Source: Firmicutes bacterium UBA4996
Lineage (GTDB): Bacteria > Bacillota > Limnochordia > Darwinibacteriales > Darwinibacteriaceae
Assembly (NCBI GenBank): GCA_002396805.1
Contig: DGYW01000058.1
Coordinates: forward strand, 45,591-109,590
Length of the DNA: 64,000 nucleotides
Direction of reading: 5' to 3'
The position numbers were made by a program, and so were the translations under genes. The notes below the pieces were generated by a model that was not told where the DNA came from, searched no databases, and saw nothing but the letters and a program-made list of their open reading frames with translations. Positions 54,027 to 62,425 of this stretch are shown here, in pieces (positions within the stretch are counted from its first letter, which is position 1; each line of letters begins with the position of its first letter).

Positions 54027-55381
54027 TGGACATTAGGGAGTTTAAAGACCAAGTATTCGCGGCAGGTCGTGAAGTTGGCTTGGAGGATATGGAAGTTTAT
54101 GTGTCCCGTTCTAAGGACTTTTCCGTACGTATCTATCAAACGGAAGTAGATGATTATACCGTTAGTGTGGAGCAAGGTGTTGGCTTTCGTGCTCGCTTTG
54201 CGGGCAAAGTTGGCTACGCCTATGTGGAAGCTTTAGACCAAGACTCAATCAAACTCTTGGTGGAAGGGGCCAAGGAGAATGCTCAGATTATAGATTCTAC
54301 TGACGAAATAGTCTTTTTCGAAGGTTCTCCAGAGTATCCCGAGGTTTCCGCTTATAGTGAGGAGTTGGAGGGTGTCTCTGCGGAAGAAAAAATCGAGTTT
54401 GCTAAGTCCCTTGAAGCAGAAGCCTTTGCGGCTGATCCGAGGGTTTCGATGGTAAATTGGTCCACTGCTGGGTATGGTGAAACAGAAGTGTACATTGCGA
54501 ACACCAAAGGATTAGAACAGTCCTATAATCGTAACGGAGCCTTCTCCTATGTCGCCGCGGTGGTGAAAGAGGGCGAAACGGTCAAAACTGGTGGACGTTT
54601 TCGCTTTGATAATGATTGGACTAAATTTGATGCCACGAAACAAGCCCAAGAAGCAGTGGCAGAAGGTGTTTCTTTGTTGAATGCTAGTTCTGTTAAGTCT
54701 GGAGACTATAGGGTATTGCTTAGATATGATGTGGCCCGGGATCTTCTTAGTACCTTTTCCTCTGTGTTTTCTGCTGAAGCGGTGCAGAAAGGGTTGTCCT
54801 TGTTAGGAGGTAAACTTGGCGAACAAATTGCCAATCCACAGCTAACTCTTGTTGACGATCCTCTACTTGCCAATGGTGGAGCGTCAGCTCCCTTTGATGG
54901 GGAAGGTGTGGCCACCAAGACTAAAGAAGTCATTTCTCAGGGAAAGCTCGTAACCTTTTTGCACAACCTCAAAACTGCAAAGAAGGACGGGGTAGAGTCA
55001 ACTGGTAATGCTTTCCGTGCTTCTTTTAAGTCCCCAGTGGGAATTTCTCCAAGCAACTTCTATATTCAGCCCGGTGATAAAAGCTATGAGGAACTGGTGA
55101 AAGAGCTCGGCAATGGATTAATTATCATTGACGTGCAGGGCACCCATTCAGGGGCTAACGCAGTGTCTGGAGACTTTTCTTTAGGTGCCTATGGCTATTT
55201 AGTGGAAAATGGTGAGATTACTAGGGCGGTTGATCAGATTACAGTTGCAGGTAATTTCTTTAAGTTGCTTGAAAGCGTGGAAGAAATTGGCGCTGACTTG
55301 GAATTTGGCATTCCGGGTTATGGTGGCAATGTAGGGTCGCCATCACTGATCATTGAAAAACTGGCAATCGCAGGTAATTAG
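54026..55381 (+). CDS. pmbA: TldE/PmbA family protein
   Basis: PmbA/TldD fold paralog lacking HExxxH, translationally coupled to tldD. Confidence 0.8.
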   Translation: MDIREFKDQVFAAGREVGLEDMEVYVSRSKDFSVRIYQTEVDDYTVSVEQGVGFRARFAGKVGYAYVEALDQDSIKLLVEGAKENAQIIDSTDEIVFFEGSPEYPEVSAYSEELEGVSAEEKIEFAKSLEAEAFAADPRVSMVNWSTAGYGETEVYIANTKGLEQSYNRNGAFSYVAAVVKEGETVKTGGRFRFDNDWTKFDATKQAQEAVAEGVSLLNASSVKSGDYRVLLRYDVARDLLSTFSSVFSAEAVQKGLSLLGGKLGEQIANPQLTLVDDPLLANGGASAPFDGEGVATKTKEVISQGKLVTFLHNLKTAKKDGVESTGNAFRASFKSPVGISPSNFYIQPGDKSYEELVKELGNGLIIIDVQGTHSGANAVSGDFSLGAYGYLVENGEITRAVDQITVAGNFFKLLESVEEIGADLEFGIPGYGGNVGSPSLIIEKLAIAGN

Positions 55382-55391
55382 GAGGACGTTT

Positions 55392-55919
55392 ATGAATTTC
55401 TCTACACGTAAGATCGCCAACCTTGGAGTGCTTACGGCAGTATCTATTGTGCTTACTCGGGTCTTCGGCTTCATTGTTCCAGTGGCAGGAGTAGGGGCTC
55501 TCAGAATTAGCTTTGGAGAGATTCCCCTGATCCTAGCTGGCATTTTGTTTGGTCCTTGGGCTGGAGCTGTTACGGGTATAGCTGCGGATTTAATCGGCTA
55601 TGCCATTAACTCACATGGGGGAGCGTTCTTTCCTGGATTTGCCTTAAGTGCAGCCCTGACGGGGCTGCTTCCCGGTTTACTGTTGCACAGTTATCGGGAG
55701 AATCTACGTTGGTGGCAAGTTGGGGTCACGGTGCTGTTGACCGATTTAGTCACAGGCGTTGTTTTAAACACTCTTTGGTTGACAATCTTGTATGGGCAAG
55801 GTTTCTTTGTTATTTTACCCGCCAGACTCTTGGCCCGTTTGGTCACTTTGCCCATCTATACGCTGGCAGTATTCTTGATTAATCGGGCGTATCAAACCTA
55901 TCGACAAGGCGCTCAGTAG
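55392..55919 (+). CDS. ECF-type transporter substrate-specific (S) component (start ATG 55392)
   Basis: Membrane protein of about 175 aa with six TM segments, typical of ECF S components. RBS GGAGGA lies upstream. Confidence 0.55.
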   Translation: MNFSTRKIANLGVLTAVSIVLTRVFGFIVPVAGVGALRISFGEIPLILAGILFGPWAGAVTGIAADLIGYAINSHGGAFFPGFALSAALTGLLPGLLLHSYRENLRWWQVGVTVLLTDLVTGVVLNTLWLTILYGQGFFVILPARLLARLVTLPIYTLAVFLINRAYQTYRQGAQ

Positions 55920-57099: not shown

Positions 57100-57585
57100 G
57101 TGATGAACTCAAAAAAGATGATCCAAACCGCTCTTTTAGTTGCTTTAGTTGCAGTTACCACCATGGTGGTGAATGTACCACTACCGGGGGTCAAAGGGTA
57201 TATCAATATTGGGGATACGATTGTGCTATTATCTGGAGTTTTGCTTGGTCCCACAACAGGGGCAGTGGCAGGCGCCCTCGGATCTAGCCTTGCGGATCTT
57301 CTCTTAGGATATGCCCATTGGGCACCATGGACCTTTATAATTAAGGGGTTAGAAGGGTTTTTGGCCGGCTGGTTGGTGTTGCGTCTCCGTAAGGGGACTA
57401 CACTAGCTACGGTGATCGGTGCTGCTGTGATGGTTGGTGGCTATTTTCTAGTGGGTACCTTGTACTATGGTTTCGGTGTAGCGGTTGCCTCTGTGCCTGG
57501 AGATCTACTTCAAGGCGGTGCCAGTGTGCTTTTGGCTCTAGTCTTGGTGCGGCCTCTCCGGAAATATCTGGGCCTGGGCCAGTAA
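57100..57585 (+). CDS. membrane protein, ECF-transporter S-component-like
   Basis: Five to six TM segments in about 160 aa, with motifs typical of ECF S components. Confidence 0.5.
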   Translation: MMNSKKMIQTALLVALVAVTTMVVNVPLPGVKGYINIGDTIVLLSGVLLGPTTGAVAGALGSSLADLLLGYAHWAPWTFIIKGLEGFLAGWLVLRLRKGTTLATVIGAAVMVGGYFLVGTLYYGFGVAVASVPGDLLQGGASVLLALVLVRPLRKYLGLGQ

Positions 57586-57595
57586 GGAACAGGCA

Positions 57596-57622
57596 CATTT
57601 TCTCTCTCCACCTCATAAGATA
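57596..57622 (+). promoter_or_regulatory. candidate sigma-E/sigma-K type promoter upstream of the sigK 5' segment
   Basis: CATAagaTA (57614..57622) matches the CATA---TA -10 consensus recognised by sigma-K. An AC dinucleotide lies about 16 nt upstream. Confidence 0.35.
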
Positions 57623-57641
57623 GTTTTGCAGAAGAGGGGAG

Positions 57642-58007
57642 GTGGGCGGTGAGTTGTTTGCCCCACTATTCAGTGGAATAGGTTTGTGGTTGTTGGAGGG
57701 CGTAGGTATGCTGGCTTCCTTCGTCACCAGTGGGAGTGCTTTTCCTAAACCCTTAAGTCCCGAAGAAGAGCAAGAATTATTAATCAAGAAGGCAGAAGGA
57801 GACGAAGGGGCCCGAAATACTCTGATCGAGCGCAACCTTCGTCTTGTGGCTCATATTGTCAAAAAGTTCGATAATACGGGTGAGGACAGTGAAGATTTGA
57901 TTTCCATCGGCGTCATTGGTTTAATTAAGGCCATTAACACCTTCAATCCTCACAAGAACACTCGCCTAGCTACTTATGCAGCTCGGTGCATTGAGAATGA
58001 GATCTAA
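57642..58007 (+). CDS. sigK: sigK 5' segment (equivalent to spoIVCB): pro-sigma-K N-terminal half, GTG start, ending ..CIENEI* at the element junction
   Basis: Near-identical to the B. subtilis SigK N-terminal half ([11 protein letters not shown]...[37 protein letters not shown]...[14 protein letters not shown]). RBS GAGGGGAGG lies upstream. Confidence 0.9.
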
Positions 58008-60309
58008 CTGTCAAAGGATCGGTGTCCACCATATAGCGTTGACCGTATACTAAAAGTTCGCAGGGTGAAGCACCTTCGTGTTTGATCTTCACTCCTTCTT
58101 GATGTACCTTTACTTCGAGTCTATGACCCCTAAAGAGTAGCTTGAAGTCATAACCAGACCATTGTCGTGGTAGAAAGGGCTTTAGGGAGAGTGTGTCATT
58201 CTCAATTCGTAAGCCACCAAATCCGTAGACGATAGACATCCAGGTACCAGCCATACTAGTAATGTGCAGGCCATCATCTGTGTCATTGTTGTAATTGTCT
58301 AGATCCAAACGGGCGGTACGCAGATACAGCTCGTATGCCTTCTCTAGATAGCCTACTTCAGCCGCAATGATCGAATAAACGCAAGGAGAGAGGGAAGACT
58401 CGTGCACTGTCATGGGTTCGTAGAAATCGAAATTGCGTTTTTTTGTTTCTAGATCATAGCGGTCTCCAAGGAAGAAGAGCCCTTGGAGTACATCTGCTTG
58501 CTTGATAAAGCAAGATCGCAGAATCCGATCCCAAGACCAGTTTTGATTCAAGGGAAGCTCGTGGGGTGGTACGGCACTCACTGGGAGTAATTCTTTATCC
58601 ATAAACCCATCCTGCTGTTCAAAGACATCGTGTTTTTCCACATAGGGGTAGTACATCTTATCCATTATTTCTCCCCAACGTACCGTTTCTTCGTGACTGA
58701 GATTTAGTTGGGTGTATAATTCTCGAAAACGACTAGGATCGCTTTGGCGAACATAGTCTAGTACCTCGAGGGTGTATTCTAAACACCAAGAAGCCATGCG
58801 ATTGGTATGCCAATTGTTGTTCACGTTGTTTTCGTACTCGTTGGGTCCCGTAACCCCGAGGATCATGTAAACACCTTTGCGGGGCTGATATGTGACTCGG
58901 CCTGCCCAAAAGCGACTAATTTCTACCAATACCTCAAGGGCGTATTCTCCTAAATATGCTCGATCGTTGGTATAGCGAACATAGTTGAAGATGGCGTAGG
59001 CTATCGCCCCATTGCGATGAATTTCTTCAAAGGTGATTTCCCATTCATTATGGCATTCTTCTCCTGTCATGGTCACCATAGGATAAAGGGCCCCCGGAAG
59101 ACCTAGTTTTCGGGCATTTTCTTTGGCTTTTTCCAGGTGTTGGTAGCGATAAATTAGGAGATTACGCGCGATTTGCGGATCGCTGGTACTTAAATAGAAG
59201 GGGAGACAATATGCCTCCGTATCCCAGTAGGTACTTCCACCGTATTTTTCTCCAGTGAAGCCTTTGGGACCTATGTTTAGACGGGGATCTTCTCCAGTAT
59301 AGGTTTGATTGAGGTGGAAGATGTTAAAGCGGATTCCTTGCTGGGCGGCGGGATCGCCTTTGATTTGAATGTCACTATCGTACCATGTTTGGGCCCATGC
59401 TTGCTCGTGTAAAGCAAAGAGTTGATCATAGGTTGATTGACCGTGCTGGTCTAATAGCTTAAGAGCTTGCTCAGTAACTTGTTTGGCGGGGTAATCCCGA
59501 TTAGTGGTGACGGCTACCAACTTCTCTAAGGTCAGGGTCTGACCTAACTGCAACTTCTGTTGAACGCTAGCCTCCGCATACCCGGAACTGGCGGCAAATT
59601 GGGTGGAATTTTCCGTTATTTCGTGTTCATCCAAATAGAGGCGAAACGAGCTGGAGGCCGCCACAAGAAATCCAGATTTTTTAGTCTCCATGGTGACCAT
59701 TTGGTGGTTCGCTTCACTGGCTTCGGTCACGCCTAGCCAAAAGTCTTCACCGTAGTTGGCGTCTTCGTTGATGACGTTGCCATCAAGGTATGGCGTAAAC
59801 TCTACTTCCACACCTTCGTATGAAGGATCCTCTTCTAGGGTTACACGGTAACGGATTGCTGCAAGTTGTCGCTGATGTTTACTGACGAAACGCCCAGTTT
59901 CAAGATGTAAGATGCGTCCTTGTTCATCCTGAACTCTAAACGAACGGGTGAGTTGGCCTGCCCGCATATCCAATTTACGCTGAAAGTCAAGGGGCTCCCA
60001 AGTGTGTAGATCTACTGCGCGTCCCCCAAGACCAACTCTTATACCAATAAAGTTTACCGCGTTGAGGACTTTCGCGAAATATTCCGGATAGCCATTCTTC
60101 CACCAACCGACCACAGTACGATCAGGATAAAATACTCCTGCGATATATGTACCCTGAAGGCTATCGCCAGAATAGTCCTCCTCGAAATTTCCGCGCATGC
60201 CCATATAACCGTTGCCTAGGCTCATGAGGCTCTCGGTGACTCGATTCCTTTCTGGATGAAACCCCTTTTCAATGATTTCCCATTCATGGGTTCCGTAGAA
60301 AAATTTCAA
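57970..60309 (-). CDS. glycoside hydrolase family 65 disaccharide phosphorylase (maltose/trehalose/kojibiose phosphorylase-like). Its last 12 codons read across attL antisense to sigK.
   Basis: A 779-aa protein with GH65 N-terminal, catalytic (alpha/alpha)6 and C-terminal regions. TTG start follows a GGGGGG RBS. Confidence 0.8.
57999..58005 (+). repeat. left copy of the 7-bp direct repeat GAGATCT (attL core)
   Basis: It is identical to 62008..62014. Joining the two copies restores ..ENEILMHLR.. in frame. Confidence 0.8.
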
Positions 60310-60433
60310 GAAGATCCCCCCTTTAGAAGTCTGTTAAGTTTATCATAACTTATTTGTCATCACTTGGCAATCGTTTGCACAAAAAGCCGAGTAGTCCGTG
60401 GGGAAATCACCAAGTGGGACCTGCTGGTTCCTT

Positions 60434-61096
60434 TTAAGATTGTCGTTGCAGGGCCTCAAGTAGTTGTTTTAGGCTCACGGATTCAAATCCAGAAATAACT
60501 ACATGGGCTGCAGATAACATATTTGGCTCACCGACACCAACCGTAAGCATTCCAGCGTTTAGAGCCGCCTCAATTCCTGCTTGGGCATCTTCAAAAACCA
60601 CAGTATGTTCTGGGGCCACGTTTAGCTGAGCTGCCCCTAGTAAAAACACCTCTGGATCGGGCTTAGCTTTCGAGACCAAATTCCCATCAATGATGGCGTC
60701 GAAATAATCAGTGATCTGAACCCTTTCCAATATGGTTCGGGCGTTCTTACTTGCTGAACCAAGGGCGATTTTTATGCCCTGACCCCGCAATTCGTCTAGG
60801 AAGTCCAAGACCCCTGGTAGTATTTCCGAAGTGTCCATTTGTAAAATATACTGTACGTACCAGGTGTTTTTCTTCGCGGCTAAGGATTCTTTTTCTGCAG
60901 TTGTTTTCTCTTGCTTGCCAATCTCCAACAGAATTTCTAAGGAACGCATCCGGCTGACTCCCTTTAGCCGTTCGTTATCTCGTTCGGTAAATTCGATGCC
61001 CAATTCGGCACCTAGACGTTTCCAAGCTAAGTAATGGTATTTGGCAGTATCAACAATTACCCCATCCAAATCAAAAATGGCCAGACGAATATCCAT
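60434..61096 (-). CDS. pgmB: beta-phosphoglucomutase (HAD family)
   Basis: HAD motif I AIFDLDGVIVDT in a 220-aa protein, upstream of the GH65 gene in the same operon. RBS AAAGGAGG. Confidence 0.85.
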   Translation of the reverse strand: MDIRLAIFDLDGVIVDTAKYHYLAWKRLGAELGIEFTERDNERLKGVSRMRSLEILLEIGKQEKTTAEKESLAAKKNTWYVQYILQMDTSEILPGVLDFLDELRGQGIKIALGSASKNARTILERVQITDYFDAIIDGNLVSKAKPDPEVFLLGAAQLNVAPEHTVVFEDAQAGIEAALNAGMLTVGVGEPNMLSAAHVVISGFESVSLKQLLEALQRQS

Positions 61097-61174
61097 AAGC
61101 TGCCTCCTTTACGGACCCATTATAACATGAGATGGAGTGGGAGCACATAGATTTTAAAGAAAGGGAGGAAGGAG

Positions 61175-62017
61175 GTGGCGTATCTGATTGCCATCTACGC
61201 CCGGGTAAGCACGGAAGAACAAGCTAAACATGGTTTTAGTATCGCTGCGCAAATTCGGGAATGTCAGGAACTGGTCGATCCTCAGCTCACCTTAACCTTT
61301 GTAGATGAGGGTGTTTCTGGTGAGATTCTGCACCGCCCAGCTCTAGAAGAATTGCGCCTAAAGATCGAACAAGGGGAAGTTAACACCGTGGTGTGTTTGG
61401 ATCCTGACCGCCTATCTCGTAAGCTACTCCATCAGCTTTTACTCACGGAGGAATGGGAAAAGCGGGGGGTGCAGTTGACTTTCGTGCACGGGGATTATAG
61501 CAAAACTCCTGAAGGCAATCTTTTTTATGCCCTCAGGGGGGCGATTTCTGAATTTGAGAAGGCTAAGATCACTGAACGTATGTGCAGGGGGAGACGGGAA
61601 AAGGCTAGGCAAGGAAGGGTTTTGAGGGATTTTCAGATCTATGGGTATGATTATGACGTGGAGCATGAACAACTAGTGGTGAATAGGGCTGAGGGAATAA
61701 TAGTAAAGAAAATTTTCACCTGGTTCTTAGAGCCGCCACCAGGAGTCAAGGGAGTCTCCAGCATTGCCAAGACCTTGACATATCAAGGAGTACCTACGAA
61801 GAGAGGTGCTAAGCAGTGGCACCGGCAAGTGGTACGTCAAATTCTGAGTAATCGTACTTACTTAGGGGAATTTTATCAGAATAAATGGGACACTACCAAC
61901 TCTCAAGTCCGGTTGCGACCGTTTGAAGAGTGGATTTTAATTCCTTGTCCATCCTTGGTTACGGTGGATGTCTTTAACCAGGTTCAGAAAAAACTGTCAG
62001 TGAATTCGAGATCTTAA
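61175..62017 (+). CDS. serine recombinase (SpoIVCA-like, but only 280 aa). It has the resolvase catalytic domain and a Recombinase domain, but lacks the zinc-ribbon and coiled-coil region.
   Basis: Catalytic motif YARVSTEEQ (Ser nucleophile). GTG start follows a GGAGGAAGGAGG RBS. The stop TAA overlaps the sigK 3' ATG. Confidence 0.8.
   Translation: MAYLIAIYARVSTEEQAKHGFSIAAQIRECQELVDPQLTLTFVDEGVSGEILHRPALEELRLKIEQGEVNTVVCLDPDRLSRKLLHQLLLTEEWEKRGVQLTFVHGDYSKTPEGNLFYALRGAISEFEKAKITERMCRGRREKARQGRVLRDFQIYGYDYDVEHEQLVVNRAEGIIVKKIFTWFLEPPPGVKGVSSIAKTLTYQGVPTKRGAKQWHRQVVRQILSNRTYLGEFYQNKWDTTNSQVRLRPFEEWILIPCPSLVTVDVFNQVQKKLSVNSRS
62008..62014 (+). repeat. right copy of the 7-bp direct repeat GAGATCT (attR core)
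   Basis: It is identical to 57999..58005. An additional AACTGTCA octamer repeat sits inside each element end (58006..58013 and 61993..62000). Confidence 0.8.
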
Positions 62018-62367
62018 TGCATCTACGCACCACCAAGAGGGCTCGTCAAGAGGTGATGCTGTACGATCCCATCGGAGCAGACCGGGAGGGAAATGAGATC
62101 AGTTTGATGGATATTCTCAGTTCCGATGGTGATGAAGTACTGGAGTCGGTGGTCTTAAATATGGATCGCAACCAATTAGCAGAAAAATTCCACTGTCTCT
62201 CCAAGCGCGAGCGGATGGTTTTGGAACTAAGATTTGGTTTAGGACACCAAGAACGGCACACTCAAAGGCAGATAGGACGCATATTAGGCATTTCTCGTTC
62301 TTACGTTTCTCGTATTGAAAAACGAGCTTTGGGTAAGCTTCTAAATGAAATGGGCCCCCTCAGCTAA
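62017..62367 (+). CDS. sigK: sigK 3' segment (equivalent to spoIIIC): sigma-K C-terminal half, regions 3 and 4
   Basis: MHLRTTKRARQEVMLYDPIGADREGNEISLMDIL...QIGRILGISRSYVSRIEKRALGKL closely matches the B. subtilis SigK C-terminal half. Confidence 0.9.
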   Translation: MHLRTTKRARQEVMLYDPIGADREGNEISLMDILSSDGDEVLESVVLNMDRNQLAEKFHCLSKRERMVLELRFGLGHQERHTQRQIGRILGISRSYVSRIEKRALGKLLNEMGPLS

Positions 62368-62425
62368 GGACCAGGTCCCGCAGTGGGGATCTGGTCTCCC
62401 CCTTGGGGATCATTTTGTTTTATCC
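62368..62425 (+). terminator. possible terminator after sigK
   Basis: Hairpins GGACCAG...CTGGTC and TCCCC-ctt-GGGGA, followed by a T-rich tract. Confidence 0.4.

Follow-up and report, generated by a model that had tools for sequence, protein, structure and literature searches.

In bacteria, the classic example of DNA deletion as part of a developmental programme is the skin element. To our knowledge, all described skins use full-length large serine recombinases and, where this was tested, a recombination directionality factor (RDF) was needed as well. The recombination site of the Bacillus subtilis skin is AATGA (PMC10745906), and the 64-aa factor Skr is encoded in the +1 frame by an open reading frame (ORF) overlapping the 5' end of the recombinase gene spoIVCA (PMC6957869). 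Among 15 Firmicutes genomes, Galperin et al. 2022 described skins of 2.6-48 kb with 2-67 encoded proteins, in which spoIVCA always lies at the skin edge, mostly immediately 5' of spoIIIC. What the domains of such enzymes contribute is illustrated by the LI integrase: without its coiled coil (ΔCC) it excises intramolecularly on every pair of sites, attL x attR included, does not integrate, and was termed an "unregulated resolvase" (Rutherford et al. 2013; PMC3783163). Here we describe a split sigK gene in a 64-kb window of contig DGYW01000058.1 from Firmicutes bacterium UBA4996 (the window being the whole stretch of 64,000 nucleotides analysed), in which the intervening element carries a serine recombinase of 280 aa. 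A compact skin at this site with the recombinase abutting attR is already a known kind of element; what is new is a naturally minimised SpoIVCA without zinc ribbon, coiled coil and Skr ORF, conserved across an uncultured clade.

Results

The split sigK gene can be rejoined in silico

The sigma-K protein of the window is encoded by two separated parts (Table 1), both of which were found where a preliminary description of this DNA had placed them. The 5' ORF (57642..58007) extends to the TAA at 58005-58007 and ends with the residues ..CIENEI; the 3' ORF, taken alone, starts with the ATG at 62017 (62017..62367; N-terminus MHLRTTKRARQ) and is followed by a terminator-like hairpin at 62392-62412. 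Copies of the direct repeat GAGATCT lie at 57999-58005 and 62008-62014, and deletion of one copy plus the insert (4,009 bp) creates an in-frame ORF of 238 aa reading ..ENEILMHLR... The preliminary description was thus right about the insert, its flanks (with an effectively correct left coordinate) and the continuous reading frame, and also about the recombinase stop codon abutting the right junction, as this TAA shares bases with the ATG of the sigK 3' part (TAATG). The repeat itself, although present here, proved peculiar to this genome: most relatives share just GAGA between the two junctions, and the loci L025 and L026 share just GA.

The rejoined ORF scored 337.7 bits against the NCBIfam SigK equivalog TIGR02846 spore_sigmaK (cut-off 298.65) and fell under the cut-off for SigE, so that the two halves align to one SigK and not to two different sigma factors. 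The crossover context, ..GAG AAT GA|G ATC TTA ATG, places the GA at the end of AAT-GA, which supports in silico the proposal of a skin-type element at the B. subtilis sigK site (ENEI|L). The split of sigK is real and not a chance arrangement. The identical locus was present in at least six independent assemblies of the window's species, and the gene is cut at the same codon, with a central GA, both in relatives (20 species-level loci) and in Bacillales (more than 40 loci). All 21 of the loci for which both junctions were available could be rejoined in silico at GA, in frame and free of stop codons. Sporulation genes flank the sigK locus, the spoIIIA operon lying downstream.

The recombinase consists of the catalytic and recombinase domains only

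The ORF of the recombinase ends at the linker between the recombinase domain (RD) and the zinc-ribbon domain (ZD) of large serine recombinases, and the sigK 3' part starts directly after. The catalytic domain (PF00239, E 8e-33) has kept the R10-V-S12 motif including the serine nucleophile, and the RD (PF07508) is matched over positions 6-100 of 102, after helix alpha-E. Neither a zinc ribbon (PF13408) nor a coiled coil was found in the 280-aa protein by Pfam or by alignment. In a PDB search the protein aligned with residues 62-296 of SprA, the SPbeta integrase, and an AlphaFold2 model (AF2, pLDDT 89.4) matched, by Foldseek, the N-terminal domain plus RD of the SPbeta (SprA), Bxb1, phiC31 (4bqq) and LI integrases. 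Identity to Bacillales skin recombinases is 53-59% across the shared domains (residues 1-279), and membership of the SpoIVCA family of serine recombinases is supported at the sequence level. Lacking zinc ribbon and coiled coil, the protein is a derivative of the large serine recombinases rather than a member in the strict sense. It also differs from the small serine recombinases (resolvase/invertase), which have a C-terminal helix-turn-helix of ~40 aa and a total length of ~180-200 aa, whereas the C-terminal domain here is the 120-aa RD of the large enzymes.

A protein search revealed a family of such proteins (275-296 aa, 63-84% identical), mostly from metagenome-assembled genomes (MAGs) named as Limnochordia or Bacillota. 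The catalytic R-V-S motif was invariant in 24/24 sequences, and the short recombinases of the main group share the C-terminus ..LSVNSRS, encoded by the P arm of attR. Pairwise omega (dN/dS; Nei-Gojobori) among short recombinases was 0.06-0.16 at dS of at least 0.85. Judged from these substitutions, the ZD-less recombinase is under purifying selection, with nonsynonymous differences (pN) well below synonymous ones (pS).

A tblastn search of the window, and of 10 kb to either side of every ZD-less locus, detected no coding sequence resembling a ZD or coiled coil. We also rejected the idea that the recombinase ORF is completed across the junction of the excised circle, as reading through attP would add just 15 codons and the read-through of the neighbouring GH65 gene changes little. 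A further apparent ZD-less lineage, the 282-aa protein P0099 (locus L103, 6001-7508), was discarded too: it is a frameshifted full-length gene with its zinc ribbon in the next ORF, and length alone therefore fails to identify ZD-less forms. P0099 adjoins the 5' half of sigK in its locus.

The element is shared by an uncultured clade and appears vertically inherited

The 20 related species-level MAG loci (L008-L021, L078 and others) display the same order of sigK 5' part, cargo, short recombinase and sigK 3' part, with a beta-phosphoglucomutase (bPGM) gene, with or without a GH65 gene, next to a recombinase of 275-296 aa in inserts of 1.6-4.2 kb. Sister lineages within the clade have retained longer recombinases: those of L022-L024 (378-383 aa) have kept the zinc ribbon while the coiled-coil region is deleted, and that of L027 has 463 aa. 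The Bacillales loci, obtained by scanning one genome per species, encode full-length relatives (~500 aa) and include Brevibacillus, Paenibacillus, Fictibacillus and Aneurinibacillus; here sigK is cut at the same residues with GA central in both junctions, and the recombinase genes likewise end just 5' of the sigK 3' part.

The main groups of the recombinase tree agree with those of a tree of four flanking host proteins, which fits vertical descent of the element. The survey of related genomes for intact versus interrupted sigK that the preliminary description had proposed gave, besides the 20 split loci, intact genes in L087-L090. One of these species, represented by L088 and L089, is syntenic and nested within the element-bearing clade, and its intact sigK (L088 4574-5275) is best read, from the sequences, as precise loss of the element. 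L087 and L090, also nested in the clade, have an uninterrupted sigK in the same gene neighbourhood too. The SigK proteins of L087-L090 are the closest intact ones (81-85% identical); they were rejected as excised copies of the split gene, being from different species with 67-77% nucleotide identity.

ZD-less forms occur in two separated groups, one comprising L025, L026 and L028, the other forming the crown group. Their differing C-terminal junctions and the interleaved ZD-bearing forms suggest that the ZD was lost at least twice, with moderate bootstrap support; the bootstrapped neighbor-joining trees leave the number of losses within the crown group unsettled.

As a separate observation, sigK is seemingly cut twice in several Bacillales (loci L059, L045, L047 and L075), among them Brevibacillus aydinogluensis, Aneurinibacillus aneurinilyticus and Shimazuella soli. 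In addition to the element at the skin site, a second one interrupts the 5' part near residue 70-73. This second element carries a different serine recombinase (~30% identical), and its position resembles the site of island IV in B. cereus bv. anthracis.

Short att sites are constrained at the DNA level

Alignment of the junctions showed att arms conserved to ~13 bp around the central GA. Because L025 and L026 have only GA in common, the crossover is assigned to the central 2 bp, which is what serine recombinases would lead one to expect, and the functional core is therefore the central GA of two ~28-bp sites. The longer 7-bp repeat of the window results from its inner P' arm, which reads GATCTAA where the clade consensus is GAATTCA. 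The element-side arms (P, TGTCAGTGAATTC; P', GAATTCAMTGTCA) are conserved even where they are non-coding, as in L025, L026 and L028, and the motif CA(G/T)TGA can be read in all four half-sites at the same distance from the centre. Symmetry between P and P' stops at 13-14 bp in ZD-less forms, while in the sites of full-length Bacillales enzymes a further symmetric motif lies outside this, at about -20 to -23. The shorter symmetry agrees with a structural model (PMC3783163) that assigns the inner half-site to the RD and the outer part to the ZD.

In element-bearing genomes, synonymous-codon entropy along sigK was minimal exactly at the att region, and the B-arm codons TGC, ATT and AAT were invariant in 21/21 loci. 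The corresponding attB region of relatives with an intact sigK has drifted (TGT ATC GAA AAT GAA ATT TTA). Low synonymous variation in the former, compared with drift in the latter, points to selection on the DNA sequence itself.

The ZD-less loci lack a Skr-like ORF and share a candidate mother-cell promoter

An ORF in the position of skr (MHVKIIEGDS..CY.YL..KYRREK) was present in nearly all full-length Bacillales loci, starting -82 to -91 from the recombinase start. Positional counterparts were found in L023, L024 and L027. With a hidden Markov model of the Skr N-terminus, that of L027 was weakly significant (E 0.016) and those of L023 and L024 were at noise level; the Skr-like status of the latter two rests on position, frame, ribosome-binding site and ATG, and a G-x8-C-x2-Y-L pattern. 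None of the ZD-less loci, the window included, has an overlapping Skr-like ORF in the +1 frame, and just ~25 nt between the -10 box and the start codon leave no room for one. The gene for a Skr-type helper thus appears to have been lost.

This -10 box, ACATAGnnT, is conserved ~25 nt before the start codon of the short recombinases. In the window its position is homologous to that of gCATAYCTT upstream of skr-spoIVCA in Bacillales. CATA-type -10 elements are common to sigma-E and sigma-K promoters (PMC3789822), and expression of the recombinase in the mother cell is plausible from this promoter-like sequence. A clean fit to the sigma-E -35 and -10 consensus was not obtained for the recombinase promoter, and the block upstream reads better as a -10 element of bPGM on the minus strand. 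In the Bacillales loci L029-L086, the gCATAYCTT box lies ~25-45 nt 5' of the Skr-like ORF, with GACAAGC, which resembles a SpoIIID box, ~12 nt further up.

Cargo genes and neighbourhood

The insert holds three genes, for a GH65 glycoside phosphorylase, bPGM and the recombinase, and its GC content (46.5%) is close to that of the window (46.8%). A bPGM gene was present in 23/23 of the related elements fetched and GH65 in most of them, with orthologues at the same position in 17 relatives; L022, L025, L026 and L028 carry bPGM and the recombinase alone, in 1.6-1.9 kb. The two cargo genes seem to own a housekeeping-type promoter inside the element, as the conserved minus-strand block upstream of bPGM (TGnTATAAT, extended -10) is probably the promoter of a bPGM-GH65 operon.

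GH65 of the window passes the crossover by 30 nt, with its last 10 codons and stop outside the element and antisense to sigK. This read-through of attL, pointed out in the preliminary description, exists but sets this genome apart: the final cargo gene of 17 relatives terminates at a TGA within the P' arm (TGACAG), which leaves the element without non-coding ends. In the window (region 57970-58013), GH65 crosses the P' arm in another frame than its relatives do, which gives it an extra C-terminal tail of 12 residues. Two features that the same description had singled out as unusual did not hold up as such. A length of 4 kb lies within the 2.6-48 kb of Galperin et al. 2022 and above the 1.6 kb reached by relatives, and tidy ends are the common case, spoIVCA being usually directly upstream of the sigK 3' part (Galperin et al. 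2022). What it missed is the 280-aa size of the recombinase, the loss of its zinc-ribbon and coiled-coil domains, and the conservation and vertical inheritance of the GH65 and bPGM cargo.

Upstream of sigK lie two paralogous genes for S components of energy-coupling factor (ECF) transporters (55353-55919 and 57100-57585), with a gene for an ArsR-type helix-turn-helix protein and a 106-aa ORF between them. This layout is kept in relatives, including species with an intact sigK.

Table 1. Features of the split sigK locus, in positions of the 64-kb window.
Feature	Position	Strand	Basis or remark
sigK 5' part (pro-sequence, region 2)	57642..58000	+	Through central GA of attL; Pfam Sigma70_r2 E 3.5e-15
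Cargo gene 1, GH65 glycoside phosphorylase (maltose/kojibiose-phosphorylase type), 779 aa	57970..60309	-	Pfam GH65 N, m and C domains; NF010380 1147 bits
Putative attL: B arm GTGCATTGAGAAT, central GA 57999-58000, P' arm GATCTAACTGTCA	57986..58013	+	Junction alignment of 21 loci
Intervening element, 4,009 bp	58001..62009		Crossover placed at central GA
Cargo gene 2, bPGM, 220 aa	60434..61096	-	TIGR01990 248.7 bits (cut-off 189.4)
Conserved block CATTATAACATG; minus-strand reading TGTTATAAT, candidate extended -10	61118..61129	-	Conserved in 20 loci
Conserved CATAGATT box, candidate mother-cell (sigma-E/K-type, CATA...T) -10	61146..61153	+	22 nt 5' of recombinase start; all clade loci
Serine recombinase, 280 aa: catalytic domain (R10, S12), alpha-E helix, recombinase domain	61175..62017	+	Pfam Resolvase and Recombinase
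Putative attR: P arm TGTCAGTGAATTC, central GA 62008-62009, B' arm GATCTTAATGCAT	61995..62022	+	Junction alignment
sigK 3' part (regions 3-4)	62010..62367	+	Pfam Sigma70_r4 E 9.3e-16

Discussion

We consider it probable that the insert in sigK is a skin that occupies the canonical SpoIVCA site, has been domesticated and passed on vertically, is immobile and capable of excision only, and is deleted by its own 280-aa recombinase. The recombinase would be made in the mother cell from the CATA-type promoter, bind the four ~13-bp half-sites sharing CA(G/T)TGA, and cut at the central GA of attL and attR, so that 4,009 bp would be deleted as a circle and ..ENE|IL.. joined to give an intact pro-sigma-K gene. 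The sequences show the layout of the locus, its rejoining in silico, the domains of the recombinase, purifying selection, conserved att sites and the agreement of recombinase and host trees; that excision happens, that the 280-aa protein alone catalyses it and that it is expressed specifically in the mother cell is what we infer from them. The coiled coil, which would otherwise block attL x attR, has been lost together with the zinc ribbon and, apparently, the Skr-type factor. We propose that these losses turned the enzyme into an RDF-independent intramolecular resolvase that excises and cannot integrate; timing would then rest on transcription alone, and the GH65 and bPGM sugar genes would be trapped passengers.

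The related loci form a natural series, from 500 aa through 463 and 380 aa (no coiled coil) to 280 aa (no zinc ribbon), along which Skr disappears and the sites become shorter. Such a series is what one would expect for a skin that has become a fixed host feature and has to excise just a single time, across 1.6-4 kb, in a cell that is terminal. Its more specific implication is that the catalytic and recombinase domains (~280 aa) would suffice for precise, RDF-independent, excision-only deletion at ~28-bp sites, and that coiled coil, ZD and Skr would have been lost stepwise, and probably repeatedly, after immobilisation; on this we are evenly divided.

Several observations weigh against autonomous excision as proposed here. 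The ΔZD form of LI integrase (residues 1-264) binds att sites ~25-fold more weakly (PMC3783163), so that a ZD-less enzyme working alone is not predicted by the model systems, and DNA binding would be the weak point of the mechanism. Which sigma factor would read the promoter is ambiguous, its -35 region lacking a clean fit, and for these uncultured organisms sporulation is deduced just from genes such as the downstream spoIIIA operon. An IUPAC pattern for the attP junction had 0 matches in JGI metagenome contigs and IMG/VR; the attB pattern matched 12 contigs, all of unrelated Firmicutes and none related to an element-bearing locus; and among 5.8 billion proteins no intact SigK exceeded 85% identity to the rejoined one. 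As assemblies represent the majority (vegetative or spore) genome, these junction scans are uninformative rather than negative.

The weakness in DNA binding keeps a trans-acting helper alive as a rival explanation, according to which the 280-aa protein is insufficient and excision needs a partner: another large serine recombinase, a separate zinc-ribbon or coiled-coil protein, or a host DNA-bending or accessory factor. Small serine recombinases normally require accessory sites or factors for activation. However, the tblastn search described above detected no candidate coding sequence for the missing domains, and the cis-encoded recombinase and its 13-bp arms are conserved and co-vary; we therefore regard such a partner as unlikely, though worth keeping in mind. 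It is improbable that the locus is a dead relic, with an inactive truncated recombinase, a permanently split sigK and lineages that have ceased to complete sporulation. The domains required by model large serine recombinases are gone, and the excision product was not seen in assemblies. Yet decay would be expected at the divergence of the short recombinases, whose omega is low instead; moreover, 21/21 sigK pairs are intact and in frame, constraint at the DNA level sits precisely at att, and sporulation genes surround the locus.

Two-subunit sigma factors exist, SigO-RsoA being an example, and the TAATG or TGATG overlap between recombinase and sigK 3' part, found in the window and many relatives, could be taken as translational coupling that yields a two-piece sigma factor without any DNA rearrangement. 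The overlap follows automatically from the codons I-L-M, however; it is missing in L022-L028, whose recombinase genes stop 10-60 nt upstream, no Shine-Dalgarno sequence precedes the ATG at 62017, and the tails of the 5' halves after ENE differ in length and sequence. With the conserved recombinase and att arms left unexplained in addition, we give a two-piece sigma factor very little chance. Even less credible, to the point of being negligible, is an assembly or binning artefact joining unrelated DNA inside sigK: the window does stem from metagenome-type data, but the same junctions recur in at least six independent assemblies of the species and in 20 other species.

If correct, a clade-wide skin without ZD and coiled coil that is maintained by selection would show what remains of a mobile integrase once it is domesticated for one irreversible job, and would be a counterpart in nature of the ΔCC "unregulated resolvase" made in the laboratory. 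The idea that DNA binding cannot do without the zinc-ribbon domain would be put to the test, and a 0.85-kb gene with ~28-bp sites and excision as its sole activity would make a compact deletion tool. The locus also offers a case of ordinary metabolic genes (GH65, bPGM) locked in an excision element over long evolutionary time.

Compared with the skin of B. subtilis, the locus has in common the target gene, the crossover (AATGA, ENEI|L), the recombinase family over the catalytic and recombinase domains and a CATA-type box upstream, and excision would in both cases rebuild pro-sigma-K. It differs in size and content, 4 kb with sugar-metabolism genes against 48 kb of phage-like DNA; with its conserved and vertically inherited GH65 and bPGM cargo, the element is not phage-like. 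SpoIVCA has 500 aa with zinc ribbon and coiled coil, the recombinase here 280 aa and neither domain, nor is there an ORF like skr, which overlaps the 5' end of spoIVCA (PMC6957869). Orientation differs as well, since spoIVCA of B. subtilis adjoins the sigK 5' part in the opposite direction (PMC10745906) while the present gene adjoins the 3' part and is co-directional with it.

The small skins of Galperin et al. 2022 resemble the element in being compact, with the recombinase at the edge immediately 5' of the sigK 3' part and no further genes in common between elements. That set covered no member of this clade, L. pilosa alone representing Limnochordia, and ~1.5 kb are allowed for spoIVCA, which treats the gene as full length. 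The elements described here reach down to 1.6 kb and share their cargo clade-wide. Further similarity exists with gin in gerE of B. cereus (GirC/GirX) and the skin of C. difficile (CD1231/CD1234), non-phage or degenerate elements that a serine recombinase removes in sporulation; these, however, use full-length large serine recombinases together with an RDF and other target sites, gin residing in a different gene altogether. A functional parallel is LI (A118-type) integrase, whose ΔCC form performs RDF-free attL x attR excision without integration (Rutherford et al. 2013), the behaviour proposed here, and whose ΔZD form (1-264) comprises the same domains as the 280-aa recombinase. Those are laboratory truncations; the recombinase in sigK is a natural one, kept under purifying selection, and its att sites are shortened.

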